A stretch of 64,000 nt of DNA from an uncultured Nitrospirota bacterium (GTDB lineage Bacteria; Nitrospinota; Nitrospinia; CAJXCL01), in NCBI GenBank assembly GCA_913051775.1, contig CAJXCL010000003.1, forward strand, positions 3,492 to 67,491, written 5' to 3'. Numbering within the stretch: the first letter of the stretch is position 1; each line of letters opens with the position of its first letter. Both the position numbers and the translations under genes were made by a program. Below, piece after piece: positions 40,925 through 61,658 of this stretch. Below the pieces are notes generated by a model. It saw only the letters and a program-made list of their open reading frames with translations, made no database searches and was not told where the DNA came from.

Positions 40925-42109
40925 ATGCCAATGGCTGTACTAAGGATAATCAGTATCAGCAGACGCGGAGATATCCCCGCATTTCATACCCCATGGTTGA
41001 TAAACAGACTGGGGGAAGGATATTGTCATTTTCAGACCCCTTACGGAGGGAAAATTCGAGAGGTTTCCTTAAAACCTGAAGATTGCGACGGCCTGGTATT
41101 CTGGACTCGAAATCCTTTTCCTCTGTTTAAGTACATTAATGAACTGAAAGATCGTGGGTATTGTTTTTATTTCCATTTTACAATTACCGGTTATCCAAAT
41201 CCTTTAGAATCACACACGCCTCCTCTCTTAAAGTCAATCGAACGATTTATAAACCTGTCGGAAAAAATAGGGTCGGAAGCTGTTCACTGGAGATATGATC
41301 CTGTTATCTTGAGCAGCCTGACTTCGGAAGCCTTTCACATAGAGAATTTTTCTTTTATAGCAAATAAACTCAAAAAAAGTACAGGGATATGCACTATTTC
41401 TTTTATCCAATTTTATGAAAAATCCCGTGGTAATTTTAAAAAAATCACTGAACAGCACGGAATTCGGTTTGACAATCCTTCTATGGAAAGAAAGATAAAA
41501 TTGGCAAAAACTTTGAAGGGAATAGCGGCAAAAAACGGAATAAATCTCAGGAGTTGTTGTGACAATTCCTTGCTGTCCGCGGGCATTCTGAAAGGAAGCT
41601 GCGTTGGCCCTGAATATCTTTCACTCATAAAGCGGCAAGTTGCCGCATCCACCATTAGGTATGGAAAGCCGAATTGGACGGCTTCTAGAGGAAAGCCGCC
41701 CGAAGGGTTGAGGCCATGGAAGGCAGAGCTAAGCTCAGCTTTGCCGATAATTAAATGGAGCTACCGCACCAACAAGCAAACAGAAAATTCTTTTAAGCTT
41801 TGCATAAGGCACTGTAAAAAACAAGAACTAACAGTGCCTAAAAAAAAGAAGCTTTTACAGTGTAATATTATAAAAACTGACTCCTATGGTAACTGGGAAA
41901 AAAGACCAACAAGAAAGGGGTGCGCCTGTTTCGAATCGGTTGATATAGGGACTTATGAAACCTGCACTTTCGGTTGTTGTTACTGCTATGCCACGCGCAG
42001 CAGAGAATCCGCGTTAAAACATCTTAAAAACTATGATAAAAACGACTCAATCCTTGTAAGACCCAAAAAATTTAACAATAAAAATATACGATTTACTAAT
42101 GCCGATTGA
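40925..42109 (+). CDS. DUF1848 family protein carrying an in-frame repeat insertion
   Basis: ISISRRGDIPAF, VFWTRNP, FTITGY, WRYDP and C.C..S.DIGTYETCTFGCCYCYA motifs; about 80 extra codons derived from repeat family A. Confidence 0.85.
   Translation: MPMAVLRIISISRRGDIPAFHTPWLINRLGEGYCHFQTPYGGKIREVSLKPEDCDGLVFWTRNPFPLFKYINELKDRGYCFYFHFTITGYPNPLESHTPPLLKSIERFINLSEKIGSEAVHWRYDPVILSSLTSEAFHIENFSFIANKLKKSTGICTISFIQFYEKSRGNFKKITEQHGIRFDNPSMERKIKLAKTLKGIAAKNGINLRSCCDNSLLSAGILKGSCVGPEYLSLIKRQVAASTIRYGKPNWTASRGKPPEGLRPWKAELSSALPIIKWSYRTNKQTENSFKLCIRHCKKQELTVPKKKKLLQCNIIKTDSYGNWEKRPTRKGCACFESVDIGTYETCTFGCCYCYATRSRESALKHLKNYDKNDSILVRPKKFNNKNIRFTNAD
41630..41876 (+). repeat. Dispersed multi-hairpin repeat family A, copy 1 (inside the DUF1848 CDS)
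   Basis: GCGGCAAGTTGCCGC...GGTATGGAAAGCCGAATTGGACGG...CCGCCCGAAGGGTTGAGGCCATGGAAGGCAGAGC...AAGCTTTTACAGTGTAATATTATAA; ends approximate. Confidence 0.85.
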
Positions 42110-42172
42110 CGAATAAAAAAAATAATTTACAAACTGCACATTTTTAATCTCAAATCTAAAACCTAAAATCAT

Positions 42173-42347
42173 AAAGCGGAGAGGCTCCTCAACCACAATT
42201 CGGCATGGAGAGCCGAACTGGACGGATGTTTTTGCAATCCGCCCGAAGGGTTGAGGCCATGGAAGGCCGAAATCAAATGGAGCTTCTGCTCCGGTGAGCA
42301 AAAAAAACTTGTTCAAAAAACAAGCTTTTATATAGTGATAGTATAAA
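42173..42347 (+). repeat. Repeat family A, copy 2
   Basis: AAAGCGGAG...CAACCACAATTCGGCATGGAGAGCCGAACTGGACGG...CCGCCCGAAGGGTTGAGGCCATGGAAGGCCGAAATCAAATGGAGC...AAAAAACAAGCTTTTATATAGTGATAGTATAA. Confidence 0.85.
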
Positions 42348-46453: not shown

Positions 46454-47065
46454 ATGACATTAAAACTCATTAACACATCGATATCCGATGTTCTTTTGCT
46501 TGAGCCGAATGTGTATGATGATTCCAGAGGGTTTTTTTTAGAAACTTTTCACCAAAGTAAATATACCGATGTGGGAATTGATAAAACTTTTGTGCAGGAC
46601 AACTATTCCCACTCAAAGCAGGGAACCTTGAGAGGATTGCATTATCAACTCCTTCATCCGCAGGGGAAATTGATCTTTGTGTTGAGAGGAGAAATATTTG
46701 ATGTGGCGGTTGATATTCGGCGAGGTTCTTCTACGTTAGGACAATGGGTTGGAGCCAATCTCTCAGCAAAAAACAAACGCCAGATATATGTACCGGAGGG
46801 GTTTGCTCATGGTTTTTGCGTATTGAGTGAATCCGCTGATGTCATGTACAAATGCTCGGACTTCTATGATACTGAAGATGAGTATGGAATTTTTTGGTCA
46901 GATGAGACGATTGCTATTAACTGGCCTGTTAAAACACCGATTCTCTCTGGAAAAGACAGCAAGTTTCAAAAATTTACTGAGATCCCTGAGAAAGATTTGC
47001 CAATTTATGGCGGGGCCGACGGGACTCGAACCCGCAACTTCCGGCGTGACAGGCCGGTGCTCTAA
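46454..47065 (+). CDS. rmlC: dTDP-4-dehydrorhamnose 3,5-epimerase; C-terminus reads into antisense tRNA-Asp
   Basis: DSRGFF, FVQDNYS, LRGLHYQ, DVAVDIRRGS, GFAHGF and YKC motifs. Confidence 0.95.
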   Translation: MTLKLINTSISDVLLLEPNVYDDSRGFFLETFHQSKYTDVGIDKTFVQDNYSHSKQGTLRGLHYQLLHPQGKLIFVLRGEIFDVAVDIRRGSSTLGQWVGANLSAKNKRQIYVPEGFAHGFCVLSESADVMYKCSDFYDTEDEYGIFWSDETIAINWPVKTPILSGKDSKFQKFTEIPEKDLPIYGGADGTRTRNFRRDRPVL

Positions 47066-47084
47066 CCAGTTGAACTACGACCCC
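47008..47084 (-). tRNA. tRNA-Asp(GTC)
   Basis: GGGGTCGTAGTTCAACTGGTTAGAGCACCGGCCTGTCACGCCGGAAGTTGCGGGTTCGAGTCCCGTCGGCCCCGCCA; full cloverleaf with encoded CCA. Confidence 0.97.
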
Positions 47085-47129
47085 CCCCAATTTTTATTCA
47101 ATATAAACCAATAGTTATGAAACCACGAA

Positions 47130-47321
47130 TTACCCAGAAGATTTCCGGTTGCTTGTTGCTGCAGGAAGCTTCAAATGAAAGGTAGTATACCACAAAAGTA
47201 ATGTGCCGCAAGTAGAATTATGCATTATCATTTGTTCTATTCCTGTATAAAGCGGCTTGATGTACAGAGTGTTTAGCCTGTTTTCTTTCCCGGAATAATA
47301 CAGCAGCGAAGAAAACGACAA
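47130..47321 (-). pseudogene. Possible histidine kinase HATPase C-terminal remnant
   Basis: QMIMHN..GTLLL..TTFHLKLP resembles the end of HATPase_c domains; weak. Confidence 0.25.
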
Positions 47322-47419
47322 TCAATAATATGATTATTTGCAGAAAAATCATCCACCTTCTTGGGAGGCCTTTTTTTCAGTCTCCGATAGGCGATATTGT
47401 TGAAGCTGAGTTGAGGGAT

Positions 47420-47872
47420 TTATTTGGAAGAGCATTTAGAACAAGTGCCGTATAGTTCGAGCCGATGAGATGTTATTTTAAACTTATGCTTCCCAGCTAT
47501 CTTCTCCTGAGTCTCTTCTATTTCAGGGTTTTTAAACTCAATAATCTTTCCGCATTTCAGGCAAATGAGATGGTCATGATGGGTATGCAGGTAGTTGTGT
47601 TCGTAATGGGCCTCGCCTTTTTCAAAGCGGCTCATCCTTGCGAGACCGGCATCATGGAAAAGCTTCAGGTTTCTATATATGGTCGCAATTCCGATTGAGG
47701 GGTCTTCTTCGTTAACCTTTTTATGAAGTTCCTCCGCTGTGATATGTCCTTCTTCTTTTAGAAATGCTTTAAGTATGGTGTTTCGCTTGGATGAATGACG
47801 AAGGTTCTTTTCCGATAAAAAATTTGTTAAAAGCTGCTTTTCTTTATACATTTTCTTGAAAGTTTTTAGCAA
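47420..47872 (-). CDS. fur: Fur family transcriptional regulator
   Basis: HITAEEL, IGIATIYRNLKLF, HHDHLICLKCGKIIEF and HRLELYGTCSKC motifs. Confidence 0.93.
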   Translation of the reverse strand: MLKTFKKMYKEKQLLTNFLSEKNLRHSSKRNTILKAFLKEEGHITAEELHKKVNEEDPSIGIATIYRNLKLFHDAGLARMSRFEKGEAHYEHNYLHTHHDHLICLKCGKIIEFKNPEIEETQEKIAGKHKFKITSHRLELYGTCSKCSSK

Positions 47873-48093
47873 CTAAACCTAAAAAAAAACCATTTTAAAC
47901 CCTAATATACAATTTTATAATTCAAAATTCTATCATTTTATACAAGTTTAGAGTTAGACCTACCGGGTCTCTTTCTCTTGCAGGGAAAAATTCGATGGGT
48001 ATTTCAGTAGACTTAAAACCTGGAATATCGTTACAAACATACCTTTAAGTGGGTTTTGGCCATGAAGATTTTATCACACACTGAAGATGGTTT

Positions 48094-48400
48094 CTACTGG
48101 TTACATTTATTATCCGTAGTTTTGAAGGATACCTGACAAACCATATAAAATAAAACAGCCGCAATAAATGTCTTTATTCGCGCATCAATGTAATTCCTGT
48201 TTTGCAGGAACATAAACATTCCGGAAAGTGTAAAGACTATCCATGGTAAACGGGTCAAAAGTATTCCGGAGTCAACCCAACCAAAAGCTTCTCCCGTGCG
48301 GATTGCAAATAACAAAAACCGGTTGTCTGCTTTCAACTCACTGGCCATTGATCCACTCCATTTATCAATGTGCCCATAGGTGAAGGATATTCCAGTAAAA
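48094..48400 (-). pseudogene. Possible PepSY-associated TM (iron-regulated membrane protein) remnant
   Basis: IRTGEAFGWV...IVFTLSGMFM resembles the LHtGe.FG...tG..mw end of PepSY_TM proteins; the upstream part is not intact. Confidence 0.35.
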
Positions 48401-48630
48401 AAGAGTTCTTCGGGACCAACTACAACGACTTGCGGAAGAAGCCAGAATAAGATGCTAAGCAGTGAACATCCTGAAATGCATAGTCTTTTCCGGCATGAAT
48501 ACCTTTAAGAAAACAAAACAGGGCAAATGGCCACCATGAAAGCCGTATTCCTATTTAGGTTAATTTACAATTAAAAGGTTAGTATATTAATCCATATCGG
48601 GAAATACATATGATTTTATTTTGATAGGGG

Positions 48631-48683
48631 TGAAAGTGTTAAGTGAGCGTATTCCCACGTAGCTTGCTGCAGTGAGCTTCAAT
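48631..48683 (+). repeat. Repeat family B, copy 6 (short form)
   Basis: TGAAAGTGTTAAGTGAGCGTATTCCCACGTAGCTTGCTGCAGTGAGCTTCAAT. Confidence 0.75.
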
Positions 48684-48832
48684 ATACTAATGTTTATTGA
48701 AAGGTACCTTAAAAAAACCGTTATTGAGGATTTCTAAAGAAAATGGTTTTTCTTTGTAGGGGATATGGATTCACCTTGAATCAAAATGTAAATGTGAGTT
48801 TTTGGAAGTGCCCGGTAGAAATTAGAAGCATT

Positions 48833-49465
48833 TTAATATGTAAATTGAACCAACTTGCGTTTTTCATTATCTTTAATTATTAATCGCTGTTTTTTAGATA
48901 TAAACTCGTTGTGCCACGTTTCTATTTCAAATTCTCCTTTAGGCACTTTTTTAATGGTAAAGTTTCCTTTTTTATCAACACTTGAAAAAAAGGGATTCTG
49001 AAGAACTAAAATAAAGCCCCTTAATTCCTGATGAATATCACACAAAAGCATAACTTCCCCCCCCTCGGAGAACTTAATAGGACCATATTTGGTGTTTGCC
49101 GGAATTCCAAAGTTGAATGAAATTGGACCACCTGTTGCTGTATGCAGGTTATGAAAGTGTGGATCTTCATTGGAAAAAATTACCTCTCTCTCTCTTGCGA
49201 TGGGAAGCACCTGAGGAATAACCTGATTATTCTTTTGAACATTCAATACTGTTTCTTTGGGTAAGCTAAAGAGTTTATTATCAACATATTTAATGTATAC
49301 GACAAAGTTCTCGAATTGATCTATACGATTTGAAACAATTCTACCTTCAACAGTAGCCGACAGGCACTCGGGAACAGCTCCCAGCCCTGGCATAATAACA
49401 GTAAAAATGATTAGTAATATTCGACTTATATGTTGCTTCATAAATAAAGCGATAAGTTGCCGCAA
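48833..49465 (-). CDS. Exported cupredoxin-like plus carboxypeptidase-regulatory-like domain protein
   Basis: Signal peptide; F.NEDPHFHN, CDIH (Cu-ligand-type C-x2-H) and GNFTIKKVPKGEFEIETWH motifs. Confidence 0.75.
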   Translation of the reverse strand: MRQLIALFMKQHISRILLIIFTVIMPGLGAVPECLSATVEGRIVSNRIDQFENFVVYIKYVDNKLFSLPKETVLNVQKNNQVIPQVLPIAREREVIFSNEDPHFHNLHTATGGPISFNFGIPANTKYGPIKFSEGGEVMLLCDIHQELRGFILVLQNPFFSSVDKKGNFTIKKVPKGEFEIETWHNEFISKKQRLIIKDNEKRKLVQFTY

Positions 49466-49600
49466 TCACAACTTGGCATGGAGAACCAAATTGGACCGAC
49501 ATACTTGCGGTTCGCCCGAAGGGTTGAGGCTATGGATGGCAGAGCTAGGTTTTGCCGAAATCAAATAAGACTGCCGCCCTGGAGAACCAACAAAAATAAA
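49446..49600 (+). repeat. Repeat family A, copy 3
   Basis: AAAGCGATAAGTTGCCGCAATCACAACTTGGCATGGAGAACCAAATTGGACCG...TCGCCCGAAGGGTTGAGGCTATGGATGGCAGAGC...TTTGCCGAAATCAAAT...CCGCCCTGGAGAACCA. Confidence 0.85.
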
Positions 49601-49638
49601 ATTAAATACTCAGAACCCCGACATTTGGTTGGGAAGCT

Positions 49639-51567
49639 TCACTTTTTAACATTTCCCCAAATAGTTGCCAGTTCACTTTCCAGACTTTCCAAATGCCCCA
49701 ATAGTTCATGAGAATATCTATCGATCTCGGTCAAATGTCCTGAAATCTTTTTGATCTCCTTGCCATTATTAGATGCTGTTAGCTTCTCTGCTCCGGCAGT
49801 ATGGGTCCTAATATGTTCCACCCTGTCATGAAGTGTATGTAAATCTCCTAATGTATGGACAATATCTTTCAAAACATGGCCCTGCGCCCTGAATGGCTGC
49901 AAAATAAATAGATAACCTAGCGCTATAATAGCGGCCAGTAAAAAAGCCCCTTGCAAAATCATTGATTCCAAAGTTGGAAATACTCCTAAAAACCCGATTC
50001 TGGGTAACCAATCTATTGGTGTGGTGCGAATCAGGCCGCCTACCTGCAACTCCAAAATTCCTTTACCGACAAATACAAAAGCCATGTAATAAAGAATCAC
50101 GCTTGTTACAGTAAAAAAAGGACGAATCGGAATTTTAGCCGTGCCGTATTTAAAGATATAATAAATAACAGTAAGAACCAGGCATCCCACTGCAAATCCT
50201 CCCCAGATCGAAACACTACCGCCGGCTTCCGCATTTGAAAAAAGAGCGGAATAAAAGAGAATCGTCTCTGCACCCTCGCGATAAACAACAAAAAACGAGG
50301 CTAATCCAAGTGTAAAGATGCTTCCCTTTCCAATCGATTGCATCACCTGGTTTTGTATATAATCCATCCATCTAGCTGCCTCCGCCTTACTGGTAAGCCA
50401 ATAGCTGACGTAGAACAGTACTGCAGCGGCAATCAACATCGTGATTCCCTCAAGATTTTCCTGGCTCTCTCCGCTTTGAGTATATATTTTTAAGAAAAGA
50501 AGAGCCGTTACTACACTGAGCACAATAGCAGCGAGAGCCCCCAGGCCGACAATTTTTACTTTATCATGGTTGTCGGTTCTGCGAAGATAGGCGATTAAGG
50601 CGCTAATGATAAGGATTGCTTCAAATCCTTCTCGCACTATAATAAAAAAAGAGCTGACAAACAGTCCAAACCAACTAGTGGATGAATCTAAGCTACCCGC
50701 CACCTTGTGAAGTTGTTTGGTTAAATCCAATACGGCAGCTTCTAATTGGTCAGTAGACGAGCCTTTTTCGATCAATCCGCGAATGTTGGCAAATTTTGAT
50801 TCAAATTCTGATTTGAGACTGCTCGACTTTGCAGCCACCATACCTTCCATACCAAGGCCTTCAAAGATATCAAAATAGGCATCGGAAACCACGCCTTTAG
50901 ATTCTCTGGAATTGCCCTGTTTGTAAAGGGCTAATGCTTTCTGAAAAAGTTGTTCAATTTCTTTTGCAATATCTTGCGGGGATAAGTCACCGGGAGAGGA
51001 TTTAGCTTGGGTAGGGGCGCCATTAGTTGTTTCGGTATCCACGGAAGCGATGGCAGGTTGTATAATATATCCCGCTCCTTCTACAGCGATATTTTTTTGG
51101 TCGAGTATCGCAGCATCATGGTTTAGAGCTTCTGTGAGCTTGATTATCTCTTGATCCACCTTTAGTGAATCATTGGCAGTCATTCCTTTTCGGATTGTTC
51201 CGAACAGGCGCTCCAGTTCATAAGCTCTGGCTGAAGAGATATACTTTTTAACAACCATCTCCATTCCCATGGACTCGAACTTCTCAAAATAAGCATCTGA
51301 AAGAAGTTCTTTTGCATAACCGATATCTCCTGTGAGAAAAGTCTGTTGCGCTAAATTAATCCCTGCAAGCACTTCCTGATTTACCCCTTTCCAATTAGAG
51401 GGAAGGGGATTGGCGAGCACCGAATTAGTAAAGGGGGAAAGAAATAATAAAGTAACAGCGCTTATCCATACGAAAACTGTATGGTATGCAACAGTAACTG
51501 CATTATCCCCGCTAAACCTATTCTTGATTCTAATTAGTGCACGAGAATTTAGATCAACGTCATTCAT
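49639..51567 (-). CDS. FTR1 family iron permease with large N-terminal periplasmic region
   Basis: Two REGxE motifs (IVREGFEA, VYREGAET); duplicated AYF..FE..GME segments; His-rich C-terminal tail. Confidence 0.92.
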   Translation of the reverse strand: MNDVDLNSRALIRIKNRFSGDNAVTVAYHTVFVWISAVTLLFLSPFTNSVLANPLPSNWKGVNQEVLAGINLAQQTFLTGDIGYAKELLSDAYFEKFESMGMEMVVKKYISSARAYELERLFGTIRKGMTANDSLKVDQEIIKLTEALNHDAAILDQKNIAVEGAGYIIQPAIASVDTETTNGAPTQAKSSPGDLSPQDIAKEIEQLFQKALALYKQGNSRESKGVVSDAYFDIFEGLGMEGMVAAKSSSLKSEFESKFANIRGLIEKGSSTDQLEAAVLDLTKQLHKVAGSLDSSTSWFGLFVSSFFIIVREGFEAILIISALIAYLRRTDNHDKVKIVGLGALAAIVLSVVTALLFLKIYTQSGESQENLEGITMLIAAAVLFYVSYWLTSKAEAARWMDYIQNQVMQSIGKGSIFTLGLASFFVVYREGAETILFYSALFSNAEAGGSVSIWGGFAVGCLVLTVIYYIFKYGTAKIPIRPFFTVTSVILYYMAFVFVGKGILELQVGGLIRTTPIDWLPRIGFLGVFPTLESMILQGAFLLAAIIALGYLFILQPFRAQGHVLKDIVHTLGDLHTLHDRVEHIRTHTAGAEKLTASNNGKEIKKISGHLTEIDRYSHELLGHLESLESELATIWGNVKK

Positions 51568-51621
51568 AGTTCGTTTATTTGATGTTTTATGATATATGAC
51601 TGAACTACCCTTGTACTGATA

Positions 51622-52617
51622 TTAGAACTCTGCTGCTAACTTGAGAGTGGCTATATCTATATTATCATTAGTACTAGAATTATCATAATTTCCATGAAGG
51701 TATTCCAGGGAGGCTGAGACCCCATCCCATATCTGGTAAGAAGCGGCCACCCCATACTGGTCCTTCGGAGAAGTAAAAAATTCATCATTCCCTTCATACT
51801 TGATGGCAGCCTCTAACTTATCTGTAACGCCATAAGCAGCCTCAACGTTCCATGCCCTGGGTTGGTCTCCGTTTCCATCACTATCGCCATCTAAATCTGA
51901 AGAAGCAAAGTCATCGAGCGCTCCTAAATACTCGGCTTCTACAGTTAATGGTCCAAAGGTAGTCGAAACGAAAGCGCTAAAACCGCCTACTTCGTCTATA
52001 AAGTTACTGCCGCTCAACAGATCGGCGTCAGTATCAGCCATATCAGAGATATAGGAGGCCCCAAGGATAATTCCTTCCACAGGTGTAACTTCAATGGCAA
52101 CTACGTAATCATCCACAAGAGTATCATCTCCTATCTTCTTCACGTCCCCATTGAATGCACCTGCTTTAACAGTAAAGATGTCCTGATTGTAGGCAATGAT
52201 AAATGGCGATTCCCTGGTCTCACCCAATTGAAGTGTGATGGGATCGCTAACAAAGTGGCTGTTAAAGGCGCCAAAGGGGAGGTACGCCTTACCTACAGTC
52301 ACGGATAGACCATCGAGCTTGCCTAAAGTCATGGTACCCACATCGAATTGAAGCGGATCTGTATCATCTTCTTCCCATTTTAAATTTATCTGACCATGGA
52401 CATATTGGTGTAGGTTCATCCCTACAGCCAGTTCTGCAGTAGCTGTGGTGATATCACTCGCATTTGTGTCTCCTCCTGCTGCTAAATCTGTACTGCTGTA
52501 AAAACTTTCTGCCTCAAGAACACCACTGATCTCAAACTTTTCGGCCAATACAGGCTTCGGCAAAATTAATAAGCAAACAATCATTAAAACTATAAATTGA
52601 ACTTTTTTCACTCTCAA
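51622..52617 (-). CDS. LbtU-like outer membrane porin
   Basis: Signal peptide; ISGVLEAE, ATAEL, YLPFGAFNSHFVSDPITLQLGETRE motifs; terminal Phe typical of beta-barrels. Confidence 0.78.
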   Translation of the reverse strand: MRVKKVQFIVLMIVCLLILPKPVLAEKFEISGVLEAESFYSSTDLAAGGDTNASDITTATAELAVGMNLHQYVHGQINLKWEEDDTDPLQFDVGTMTLGKLDGLSVTVGKAYLPFGAFNSHFVSDPITLQLGETRESPFIIAYNQDIFTVKAGAFNGDVKKIGDDTLVDDYVVAIEVTPVEGIILGASYISDMADTDADLLSGSNFIDEVGGFSAFVSTTFGPLTVEAEYLGALDDFASSDLDGDSDGNGDQPRAWNVEAAYGVTDKLEAAIKYEGNDEFFTSPKDQYGVAASYQIWDGVSASLEYLHGNYDNSSTNDNIDIATLKLAAEF

Positions 52618-52669
52618 TCTCCTTTTTAGTTGAAATACAGTTTTTATAACAAACAGAGAATAATCAGCA

Positions 52670-52708
52670 AAATGCCCCGGCTATTTTTTGTTATTGACCG
52701 GGGCTATT
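52670..52708 (-). terminator. Imperfect hairpin between p19 and the porin gene
   Basis: AAATGCCCCGG...CCGGGCTATTT inverted repeat. Confidence 0.3.
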
Positions 52709-52827
52709 TACAATATTATTGCCAATAGTTCACTGATTTTCCCTGCTGTTTTTATTTGAACTATCGTTCCAGAATTTGTATGAGGGAAAGAAAAACACTC
52801 CCACAAACAAACTATCTTTATTTGTAC

Positions 52828-53370
52828 TTATTTTGCTCCTTTAAAATCGAAATCCCACGTAGCATTAAAAGACTCCCACCATGGAGCGACGCCTGATACA
52901 GGGTCCGTATGCCTTGCAAGTTCACGACTGTCGGGTGGAGCTATATGAAAGATTAGCTTATACTTACCATAAGGGAGGAATATTTGAGCCCCGTAATGAG
53001 GGCCGTCTTTTGCCACCATGGGCAAAGCCTTCCCTTGGATCATTGTCCCGTTTGTGTCTTTAATAGTGTAGCCGACCCTAAGATTTGGAATCCATTCTCC
53101 GGCGCCAAATCCATTTTCATTTCCTTGAATGGCATGAATGTCTGCTTCAATATGAATGGTTTCTCCCGTTTTTTTCTTTTTCAAATCACCCATACTCGAC
53201 ATGCCTTCCATTTTTACCGGTGGTAGCCATACGGCTGCAATTTCCAACTTGTTTTTTTCAATACTATCGCCGATAGGGTACTCCCGGAAAGGAACTTCTC
53301 CTTGTGCAATAGAGGAAAACATAATAGTTAAAGCTAATCCAAAAAAAATCGTTTTTCCTGAATGTTTCAT
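52828..53370 (-). CDS. p19/Tpd/FetP-type periplasmic Fe/Cu-binding protein
   Basis: EYPIG, EIAAVW, HIEADIHA..GN.NGF..GEWIP, MVAKDGPHYG and RHTD...GV.PWW motifs. Confidence 0.93.
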   Translation of the reverse strand: MKHSGKTIFFGLALTIMFSSIAQGEVPFREYPIGDSIEKNKLEIAAVWLPPVKMEGMSSMGDLKKKKTGETIHIEADIHAIQGNENGFGAGEWIPNLRVGYTIKDTNGTMIQGKALPMVAKDGPHYGAQIFLPYGKYKLIFHIAPPDSRELARHTDPVSGVAPWWESFNATWDFDFKGAK

Positions 53371-53684
53371 TTACTCTCCTATTTAAATGTAATAAATGTA
53401 AAATTATAAAAATGTGTACGCCAACTTCGTAATGCCAGATTGTTTTGTCGGACATCTGAAAGTTCGTTCTTTCCAGATTCCCTCTAAAATAATTTGACAA
53501 CACCCCTACATTAGTAAAACTTCTCAGAATCTTTGCTCAATGATCTTTTTGACACCTCCTTCCTTTATTGAGAGATGGAGGGACAGTACTTGCGAGAGAG
53601 AGGAGGGTAATGCAAAATTATTTATTAAACACAAGTACTGCCCAGACATATTATTTATACACAGCAATAAATTTTCAAATAAAT

Positions 53685-53708
53685 ATAATGATACGTATTA
53701 TCATTATC
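53685..53708 (-). promoter_or_regulatory. Fur box
   Basis: Minus strand GATAATGATAATACGTATCATTAT; the first 12 nt match the consensus GATAATGATAATCATTATC exactly; lies just downstream of a consensus promoter. Confidence 0.8.
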
Positions 53709-53721
53709 AAGTAATATGAAA

Positions 53722-53750
53722 AGTATATACAAGCTGCATGGTCTTGTCAA
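53722..53750 (-). promoter_or_regulatory. Sigma70 promoter of the iron-uptake locus
   Basis: TTGACA, 17 nt spacer, TATACT on the minus strand. Confidence 0.75.
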
Positions 53751-53815
53751 GCTTTTTTTATTTTATTTAAAAAAGGCAGTTGCATAATAAGACTATGAAT
53801 ATAAAACTGAACTCA

Positions 53816-54010
53816 TCACGCAACAGATTCTGTTTCGAGCAGAATCTGTTTGCTGTCCATCTCATGTATTGGAATCTCCCTGCTTTGTCCAAGAATGGTT
53901 TTTGCCTGATCACGGCCTATAACCATCGCAGTGTCCAAAAATATATATTGGAATAGTCCTTGACGTCCTAAAGTTGTGATATTTTTAAAACGGTGTTTGT
54001 AGATTTCGGG
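53816..54010 (-). pseudogene. Possible FAD-dependent oxidoreductase C-terminal remnant
   Basis: Manual translation FKNITTLGRQGLFQYIFLDTAMVIGRDQAKTIL resembles the GR.G.F.Y...D.A...G end of PPO/UGM-like flavoproteins; no start. Confidence 0.35.
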
Positions 54011-54246
54011 TCAAGTCATGAACGACATTTTTCGGACTGGCTGATTAGGAGATTGTCATAACAAAATATAGAGTTTTTTTGAAGCACCTTAAAATCTTAT
54101 ATTTTAAATGATAGGGAATGGATACAGGAAAAGCGGGATTGGTGTTTTGCGAACGTATTTCCCGGAGACTTACCCTAAGCCACTCTTGCGCCGGGTGAGT
54201 ATTGTGGGGAACTTGGTTATGTTAATGGTTTTTTTTTAAGAGGGGT

Positions 54247-54322
54247 TGGTGGGCGGAACAGGGCTCGAACCTGTGACATCCGGCTTGTAAGGCCGACGCT
54301 CTCCCAGCTGAGCTACCCGCCC
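54247..54322 (-). tRNA. tRNA-Val(TAC)
   Basis: GGGCGGGTAGCTCAGCTGGGAGAGCGTCGGCCTTACAAGCCGGATGTCACAGGTTCGAGCCCTGTTCCGCCCACCA; full cloverleaf with CCA. Confidence 0.97.
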
Positions 54323-54357
54323 TAAAATAATTGGCAATATAGTTTTAAAAGACTAAA

Positions 54358-54386
54358 AGTATATCTATCGATAAATTAAGTGTCAA
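54358..54386 (-). promoter_or_regulatory. Sigma70 promoter of tRNA-Val
   Basis: TTGACA, 17 nt spacer, TATACT; about 35 nt upstream of the tRNA. Confidence 0.75.
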
Positions 54387-54397
54387 GGTTAATTTAA

Positions 54398-55171
54398 TTA
54401 ATATATCTTGATTATTTTTTTGATCATAAAATCAGCTTCGTAAATAGATTCTGAATCCTTAATTACTTCTCCCCTTAATGCCATGAATTTTCCTACGTAC
54501 TGCTTCAGATCCTCCTGTAAAGAACCTTTGATATAATAAACTCTTTTTTTTCTTTTGCTTTTATTGATTAATGCAAGCTGTTTCCCTTGGTTTTCCCAAT
54601 TTTGAAGTGTGCCATATATAGTTTTGAAAGGTTTTTTGCTGGATTTTTTAATTTTTTTCTTAATACTCTCTGAACTTAAAATTACCGGTAAATCACTCTG
54701 TTTAACCACATAAAATCCATAATGTATTGATTTAAAAGGTGGAATGCTGTATTCCCTGTTGCTATGAAAATAAAATGCTTTCACTTCAATCTTTTCTTTG
54801 CTCTCATGCTCAAGTATTTTTACTTTATCTATTTTGTAGTTATCAGTTGGATGAGAAAGAATCGCGATAACCATTCTTGATGAGAAGTCGTTTCTGAGTA
54901 ATTGTCGTTCGAGACGTAGTGCTTTGTTATGTGTTGTAATGTTCCGAATTTTTCTGAATTTGTTAAATAAATAGGTAACACCATCTTTTGAACGGATGAC
55001 ACTAATGTATGGAGGCTGGCTTAAGTTGGTTCCCTTAACAGTGGTTATGAAATTTCCCTGGTATTTTTTGATAAGCCTGATTTTTTTTGGGGAGGCATGG
55101 AGAAAGGTAGCATGTAAAGAGACAAAAAGCATGATGGTTATAATTTTTAAACCCGATTTTCTACTCTTCAT
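54398..55171 (-). CDS. Exported, very basic hypothetical protein (possible PrcB-like domain)
   Basis: Signal-like N-terminus, 257-aa open frame; MVIAILSHPTDNYKID...HYGFYVVKQSDLPV is loosely PrcB-like. Confidence 0.6.
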   Translation of the reverse strand: MKSRKSGLKIITIMLFVSLHATFLHASPKKIRLIKKYQGNFITTVKGTNLSQPPYISVIRSKDGVTYLFNKFRKIRNITTHNKALRLERQLLRNDFSSRMVIAILSHPTDNYKIDKVKILEHESKEKIEVKAFYFHSNREYSIPPFKSIHYGFYVVKQSDLPVILSSESIKKKIKKSSKKPFKTIYGTLQNWENQGKQLALINKSKRKKRVYYIKGSLQEDLKQYVGKFMALRGEVIKDSESIYEADFMIKKIIKIY

Positions 55172-61564: not shown

Positions 61565-61658
61565 TACGGCATGTTGCCGCAACCACATAGGCTTCCGCCC
61601 TGGAGAACCATCAAAAAAACTTTTTCAAAAAACAAGTTTTTACAGAGCAATAGTATAA
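61565..61658 (+). repeat. Repeat family A, copy 5 (internally deleted)
   Basis: ACGGCATGTTGCCGCAACCACA joined to GCTTCCGCCCTGGAGAACCA...AAAAAACAAGTTTTTACAGAGCAATAGTATAA. Confidence 0.75.

Follow-up and report, generated by a model that had tools for sequence, protein, structure and literature searches.

We analyzed a 64-kb window of the genome of an uncultured marine Nitrospinota species (G000) and describe here a cassette of four genes (5.7 kb, about 48554-54230) encoding a P19 protein, an LbtU-family porin, an FTR1 permease, and a cupredoxin-domain protein. G001, G002, and G003 are congeners of this species, and G001, a sister from the same genus, was used for synteny. The list of open reading frames (ORFs) and the tRNA scan place all features of the locus on the minus strand, in the order tRNA-Val, promoter, Fur box, leader, p19, porin gene, FTR1 gene, gene for a 210-aa protein, gene stump, fur, and tRNA-Asp. 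Thus, the p19, porin, FTR1, and cupredoxin-like genes are co-oriented, as the original prediction had claimed, and profile searches confirmed P19, the porin, FTR1, and Fur through matches to PF10634, NF033652, PF03239, and PF01475, respectively. L205, which was assembled independently from a different sample, matches the window with 99.75% identity over 7.3 kb that include the tRNA-side junction, and therefore the arrangement is not an assembly artifact. An Rfam scan of 46900-54500 returned two tRNAs and nothing else.

The first gene of the cassette, p19 (52828..53370), encodes a 180-aa protein with a signal peptide (PF10634, E 2e-48), assigned to the periplasmic, copper-dependent iron binders of the P19/FetP type. 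Among solved structures, the closest relative is E. coli FetP (3NRP, E 1e-43), which bears out the p19 gene of the original prediction. Positions H44, E46, M90, H97, and H127 are conserved in the alignment to 3NRP, and these are reportedly the copper and iron ligands of FetP (Koch et al. 2011). A structured spacer of 216 nt (52612..52827) separates p19 from the porin gene. This spacer folds strongly (z-score -4.45) and has two hairpins, one of which reads GCCCCGG...CCGGGGC and is followed by a weak T tract. Both hairpins are kept in L117, a contig from the ENA database, and the spacer may attenuate transcription or serve as a processing site. The porin gene (51622..52611) encodes 329 aa from a GTG start at 52611, which was set by comparison with L117, and its stop lies 54 nt ahead of the FTR1 gene.

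The FTR1 gene (49639..51567) encodes a 642-aa, FetM-like permease. It matches PF03239 with 95 bits, searches of the PDB found no sequence relatives of it, and has two REXXE motifs, REGFE (312) and REGAE (430), in keeping with the FTR1 gene that had been claimed. It has an N-terminal signal or anchor, seven predicted transmembrane segments, and a His-rich cytoplasmic C-terminal tail. A periplasmic extension of about 250 aa is formed by a duplicated helical module (about residues 55-300), and the internal repeat, in which SDAYF..FE..GME occurs twice, has an alignment score of 95 versus 29±4.7 for shuffled sequences. The predicted architecture is that of the FetM/cFtr1 type. We also observed a stand-alone 135-aa protein resembling the FetM-type periplasmic "DAYF" module in another Nitrospinota genome (G009; L009 2061-2468), where it is encoded between FTR1 and p19. 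In addition, the FTR1 tail (49684-49845, residues ~575-628) is 35 to 38% identical to the C-terminal tails of the BNR/PepSY_TM-like membrane proteins whose genes come first in the related operons of L096 (3752-4774) and L097 (3157-4635). This shared tail might be where a common cytoplasmic partner docks, or it might sense metal.

Between the FTR1 and cupredoxin genes is a gap of 173 nt (49466..49638), which is filled by a copy of a dispersed repeat (about 49440-49660; strand unassigned). Further copies lie at 41627-41756, 42171-42270, and 61574-61617. The FTR1-side copy is shared with L117 and thus predates the split of the window and L117 lineages.

The last gene (48833..49465) encodes the 210-aa protein (or 202 aa from an ATG at 49441), which has no Pfam match above the cutoff. 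Its family comprises 6844 cluster representatives at E<1e-3. When 80 members were aligned, C142 and H145 were invariant and H105, N106, and M148 nearly so; PF00127 Copper-bind was matched in 20 of the 80 and CarboxypepD_reg in 68. The AF2 model (pLDDT 94.7) gave Foldseek matches to amicyanin, pseudoazurin, plastocyanin, and Brucella FtrB (8VUK), in agreement with the cupredoxin-like protein of the original prediction. On B. abortus FtrB the model superimposes with a target-normalized TM of 0.76 and a root mean square deviation (rmsd) of 2.0 Å; sequence searches give no link to FtrB. H105, C142, and H145 follow the type 1 copper ligand pattern on a cupredoxin fold, which predicts a copper site, and the axial position is Leu148, with Leu, Ile, or Met among close relatives; a Leu there would predict a high reduction potential. 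The ligand pattern, the domains of the family, and the fold matches together indicate a cupredoxin domain with classical ligands, to which an Ig-like domain of the CarboxypepD_reg type is fused.

Close homologues of this protein (43 to 72% identical) are encoded directly after p19 in L096, L097, L099, and L122. In P0177, a distant protein, cupredoxin and FTR1 are naturally fused and p19 comes next, and this cupredoxin::FTR1 fusion ties the 210-aa protein to the permease. Because of these two observations, we assign the cupredoxin protein to the module. Homologues with about 30% identity at 75 metagenome loci adjoin neither P19 nor FTR1 and have mixed neighbors (PAS/HAMP sensors, among others), and such contexts say nothing about function.

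Fur box, promoter, and resident fur

A sigma-70-like promoter, TTGACA-17-TATACT, with 11 of 12 consensus matches lies at 53722..53750, separated from tRNA-Val by an ORF-free stretch of about 480 nt. The promoter is identical in the independent contig L205. Past it by 14 nt is the Fur box GATAATGATAATACGTATCATTAT (53685..53708; consensus match at 53690-53708), which overlaps the predicted transcription start. We searched for Fur boxes with at most 3 mismatches to the 19-bp E. coli consensus, and this was the sole match in the window, where 0.05 would be expected by chance. Genome-wide there were two matches, and the second (on C11) is probably due to chance, as it lies within a coding sequence. 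Thus, the Fur box claimed ahead of the cluster is real as a single match with a predicted promoter adjoining it. Between the box and p19 lies an untranslated leader of about 315 to 345 nt (53371..53684), which is not as well conserved as the genes (68% identity to L117, with many gaps) and matches no Rfam family. The leader also holds a 12-bp inverted repeat (GGGCAGTACTTG...CAAGTACTGTCCC) whose loop is rich in C and U.

The fur gene (47420..47872; PF01475, 135 bits; likely start at ATG 47851, giving 143 aa) had been taken for the cassette's own regulator. However, 0.96 kb separate fur from the final gene of the cassette, fur is not part of the inserted block, and G001, which is without the cassette, has an orthologue at the same site. 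It is also the only Fur-family gene in G000. We therefore rejected an island-borne fur: this is the general Fur of the cell, not the cassette's own. The resident Fur is the presumed repressor acting on the Fur box of the cassette. Both features of a Fur regulon member were found in the sequence: a box lies over a predicted promoter, and the genome encodes a Fur protein.

Another question is which metal the cassette handles. A cassette dealing mainly with copper or manganese, instead of iron, would suit the conserved copper site of P19 and its copper-type partner protein; Cu and Mn are both bound by proteins of the P19 family, and copper delivery is the role of some relatives. This does not fit well with the near-consensus Fur box at the promoter or with the presence of both REXXE iron motifs in FTR1. 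Moreover, a ferritin gene adjoins the fusion locus L206, and copper is a cofactor, not cargo, in the characterized FetMP/Ftr systems. We regard a main role in copper or manganese handling as highly improbable. That the cassette is a Fur-controlled iron importer of the FetMP/Ftr type is very probable.

The porin and the LbtU family

The porin matches NF033652 (LbtU_sider_porin) with 220 bits against a cutoff of 90, over model positions 2-327 of 327, so that the description "LbtU-like" in the original prediction was correct. No sequence relatives were found in the PDB. An AF2 model from a 57-sequence alignment (pLDDT 91.4) is a 16-stranded barrel without a plug domain, and an internal loop of the model carries the most conserved motif, PFG-FNSHF-SDP-TL-LGETRE. 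The top Foldseek matches were the 16-stranded trimeric porins Omp38, OmpU, PorB, and OprP, with TM values of 0.6 to 0.7. A plug-less barrel of 16 strands, as modeled, would be TonB independent by design. The mature protein is very acidic, with 53 D+E versus 13 K+R and a pI of 4.05, and other family members are similarly acidic.

Of the LbtU-family loci in GTDB species genomes, the 80 closest were surveyed for neighbors within 8 kb. FeoB was present at 24 of the 80 loci and a DtxR-type repressor at 11, while P19, FTR1, and cupredoxin were found at none. As immediate neighbors of the porins we observed FeoB (about 12 of 58), DUF4198 (12 upstream, 5 downstream), CbiK, CbiM, CbiC, CbiX, and ABC ATPases. 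Two examples are G005, with the order DtxR ... FeoB > porin, and a Desulfuromonas contig with the order FeoA > FeoB > porin. From such neighborhoods, with FeoB and Ni/Co importers, the family looks like one of metal-cation porins, the siderophore label stemming from one studied member, and the annotation "LbtU siderophore porin" may be too narrow for most of its members.

This bears on a different function for the porin, in which a ferric siderophore or another small chelate would pass through an LbtU-type channel and have its iron stripped and imported by P19 and FTR1, as has been hypothesized for C. jejuni FetMP. The porin does score above the NCBIfam cutoff for "LbtU family siderophore porin," and published FetMP models assume that an iron-chelator complex crosses the outer membrane. 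However, no IucA/IucC synthetase was found in G000 or its congeners, no siderophore family is among the 25 most frequent neighbor families of the 80 loci, where FeoB, DUF4198, and Cbi proteins dominate, and a very acidic pore would favor cations over anionic polycarboxylate complexes. We consider a chelate channel unlikely. The analogy to Legionella in the original prediction consequently held for the family match but not for the siderophore link. Like the legiobactin receptor LbtU of L. pneumophila, the window porin belongs to NF033652, and its model has the plug-less 16-stranded barrel. Unlike LbtU, it has no lbtABC-like siderophore genes at its locus or in its genome, and its neighbors are importers of the Fe(II) type.

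G000 is a 2.05-Mb metagenome-assembled genome (MAG), 96% complete, and is the smallest of the four congeneric genomes. At this completeness, no TonB-dependent receptor barrel (PF00593) was detected in it; G001, G002, and G003 each have one or two. True FeoB is absent from all four genomes, in which the best matches are generic GTPases of at most 55 bits. Short FTR1 genes of the EfeU-like type occur in G001 and G003. Provided that the MAG is representative, the main dedicated iron route of the species would be the cassette.

Related FTR1–P19 modules and a possible import route

L117 carries p19 > porin > FTR1 collinear with the window at 90.3% nucleotide identity. Amino acid identities to L117 are 91% for P19, 83% for the porin, and 93% for FTR1. 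The corresponding dN/dS values are 0.39, 0.29, and 0.39, which indicates purifying selection on all three genes. The dS values are 0.13 for p19 and 0.08 for FTR1, whereas that of the porin gene (window 51622-52611 versus L117 1066-2046) is 0.31, 2.5 to 4 times higher. This outlying value hints at allele exchange or recombination confined to the surface-exposed porin.

The closest FTR1 homologues are 55 to 71% identical, and in L096, L097, L099, and L122 the order is FTR1 > p19 > cupredoxin homologue; in L098 it is FTR1 > p19, where the contig ends. Housekeeping genes flanking the L096 and L097 modules are 73 to 78% identical to those of G000, and these contigs thus come from related Nitrospinota. 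Among the 10 other related FTR1–P19 loci examined, 9 have a porin-type gene, the exception being the truncated L098. In L096 and L097, a protein of 415 or 422 aa, which combines a signal peptide with a coiled-coil stretch and a barrel, is encoded just upstream of FTR1. This is a remote relative of the LbtU family (hhalign E 4.6e-5, loop motif included). An OprB porin adjoins FTR1–P19 in L099, L122, G009, and L207, and the L207 porin has a weak match to the "iron uptake porin" model NF033921. L206 has a coiled-coil barrel with weak BBP2 and Porin_4 matches. In L208, from Rokubacteria, FTR1 > p19 > p19 > Fer4_5 is followed by a 430-aa protein that matches NF033652 below the cutoff (E 1e-15). Thus, the porin design is not unique to the window locus, as porins of other families adjoin related FTR1–P19 modules.

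These comparisons also speak to whether the porin is a mere passenger, that is, a general porin, or one for an unrelated substrate, that a rearrangement placed between p19 and FTR1 and that has no role in iron uptake. The different gene order of the closest relatives would fit such an event. So would the terminator-like hairpin ahead of the porin gene and its high dS, which suggests a separate history. However, the order is intact in L117, a lineage diverged by 10%, in which selection on the porin is evident from its dN/dS, and the spacer between the porin and FTR1 genes is very short. Porin-type genes of three or more families also recur at the related loci, which is why we count the porin as part of the module. 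We consider a passenger quite unlikely and a functional outer-membrane entry for the importer probable.

In the related operons of L096 (3752-6816), L097 (3157-6778), and L206 (1498-5013), we also observed genes for a BNR/PepSY_TM-like membrane protein and an FMN_bind (RnfG-like) protein, with an ApbE flavin transferase in L206 as well. These added genes look like an extracytoplasmic flavin-based redox arm, which the window cassette is without.

We compared the cassette with the known systems. It resembles FetMP of E. coli F11 and cFtr1-P19 of C. jejuni (cj1658-1665) in that its P19 is closest to FetP, its long FTR1 combines two REXXE motifs with a large periplasmic domain at the N terminus, and FTR1 is encoded near P19, here with the porin gene alone between them. 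As in C. jejuni, a Fur box precedes the cluster. It differs in having an outer-membrane porin and a cupredoxin-domain protein, in the order p19 > porin > FTR1, and in lacking the FetA-F proteins (DUF2318, FtsX/ABC, thioredoxins) of C. jejuni fetABCDEF, none of which is among the four ORFs of the 5.7-kb block. According to papers on C. jejuni, no receptor for the outer membrane is encoded in the Fet cluster, and the path across this membrane is unidentified. With FtrABCD of Bordetella, Brucella, and Burkholderia, the cassette shares P19 (FtrA), the FTR1 permease (FtrC), and a periplasmic cupredoxin-fold protein; unlike FtrABCD, it has a porin and no FtrD polyferredoxin (Fer4_5), which is present in the more distant loci L207 and L208. 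The absence of FtrD and ABC components and the presence of a dedicated porin had been noted in the original prediction, and no match to the former was found among the four ORFs. The paper on FtrB reports that the classical His/His/Cys ligands are missing from this protein and that some ftrABC operons have no ftrD. The window cupredoxin, in contrast, has the classical His/Cys/His set and an additional CarboxypepD_reg-like domain.

A further comparison is with Slr1908 (Qiu et al. 2021, cited in PMC9723758), which is described there as a cyanobacterial, iron-selective OprB-type porin for TonB-independent, passive iron entry. Passive entry through a porin without TonB is the point of likeness, and OprB-type porins adjoin related FTR1–P19 modules. 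However, the window porin is of the LbtU family, not OprB/SLH, and no operon link of Slr1908 to FTR1/P19 is reported. Our literature search, which did not cover all journals, found no paper on a porin gene linked to an FTR1–P19 cluster, in line with the suggestion that this is a possibly undescribed variant. A search on Nitrospina and iron returned fungal papers only.

With moderate confidence, we propose that the cassette is a Fur-repressed, TonB-independent iron-uptake route across both membranes, of the FetMP/Ftr kind. Under iron-replete conditions, the single Fur of the cell would bind the box over the promoter. Iron scarcity would allow transcription of the cluster, and the structured spacer after p19 would probably tune the ratio of the products. 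The acidic LbtU-family porin would then pass cationic iron, most likely Fe(II), by diffusion, as suggested by its predicted fold, its charge, and the neighbors of its family. A P19/FetP dimer with a copper site would capture this iron in the periplasm, given the homology to FetP/P19 and the conserved ligand positions. The cupredoxin protein would probably perform a one-electron step, either taking Fe2+ to Fe3+ or keeping the P19 copper in the right state. In yeast, Fet3p does the one-electron iron step, and FtrB has been proposed for it in FtrABCD. For the Fe2+/Fe3+ step specifically, we put the chances of the cupredoxin at somewhat below even. Finally, the FetM-like FTR1 with its two REXXE motifs would, by homology, move iron over the inner membrane.

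Several points weigh against this proposal. The exact pairing must be rare, since none of the 80 closest LbtU-family loci has P19 or FTR1. The sole characterized LbtU is linked to a siderophore, and workers on C. jejuni favor a chelated iron source for FetMP. Within the cassette, the structured spacer, on the scale of 210 nt and with a terminator-like hairpin after p19, could uncouple expression of the genes, as could the repeat element ahead of the cupredoxin gene, and no electron acceptor for the cupredoxin is encoded. Finally, the apparent lack of TonB-dependent receptors in G000 was judged from a MAG that is 96% complete.

If the proposal holds, a porin built into the cluster suggests how iron crosses the outer membrane for P19/FTR1 importers, a step that published accounts of FetMP/P19 and FtrABCD describe as unidentified. 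In several phyla, related clusters are again accompanied by porin genes, which belong to at least three families, and this leads to the testable idea that dedicated, passive, cation-selective porins feed FetMP/Ftr-type importers. The classical-ligand cupredoxin, with its natural fusion to FTR1, would be a cleaner candidate than FtrB for the redox step, which is disputed. Nitrospinota of the sea are major oxidizers of nitrite and have a high iron demand; a TonB-free iron route in a 2-Mb genome that shows no receptor of the TonB-dependent type would be relevant to how they manage where iron is scarce. A broader conjecture, which we offer only tentatively, is that LbtU-type porins and, in parallel, OprB-type porins are general acidic, TonB-independent metal-cation channels that are paired module by module with FeoB, Ni/Co systems, imelysin clusters, or FTR1–P19. 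The island would then have taken the place of TonB-dependent receptors and become the sole dedicated path for iron through the outer membrane in this streamlined marine Nitrospinota species, and the porin would be the "missing" partner of FetMP/Ftr, at least in environmental lineages.

Insertion site and flanking tRNA genes

The cassette lies downstream of tRNA-Val (TAC) (54247..54322), which was identified by ARAGORN and Rfam (66 bits) and by synteny blastn. By the same synteny blastn, G001 (C91) is collinear with the window from a TolB-like gene through tRNA-Val to about 54231. Homology stops about 16 nt past the tRNA-Val 3' end, which marks the left edge of the block. G001 then has about 700 bp of its own sequence, with a promoter and the first 183 codons of a PMT_2 gene, and collinearity resumes at window position 48553, the right edge, and continues through fur. 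The intervening 5.7 kb is absent from G001 at the syntenic site, where the order is tRNA-Val, an intact 478-aa PMT_2 gene, and fur. The island position after tRNA-Val that the original prediction had pointed out is therefore well founded.

Beyond the gene for the 210-aa protein, and after a gap of about 280 nt, the window holds a PMT_2-family gene stump (48094..48553) with an 84-aa ORF at 48094-48348. The stump aligns at 86% to L114 2707-3124, within the 478-aa ORF of G001, and has a PF13231 match; its 84-aa ORF aligns to the middle of the G001 gene. This alignment, together with the synteny, shows that a gene for a PMT_2-type membrane protein was truncated by the insertion. A "PepSY remnant" had been suggested at this position. 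However, Pfam and NCBIfam gave nothing for the 84-aa ORF, and tblastn with the BNR/PepSY_TM proteins of L096 and L097 matched the FTR1 C-terminal tail only, so the suggestion was abandoned.

P19 occurs in 2 of the 120 species genomes of the phylum, and an LbtU-type porin scores above the cutoff in 2 of 41 relatives. The cassette is real, conserved, and horizontally placed. We also considered, and rejected, a classical integrative island and a plasmid origin. No integrase was found, nor any direct repeat of at least 9 bp common to both junctions, and a distant blastn search against plasmids returned nothing meaningful. On the far side of fur, the region of tRNA-Asp (47008-47084) is variable among the congeners as well (47008-47220; L113, L115), and in G001 an insert of about 5 kb separates rmlC from a tRNA-Asp-like segment. 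Given variability at both tRNA-Val and tRNA-Asp, the two tRNA genes flank a hotspot.

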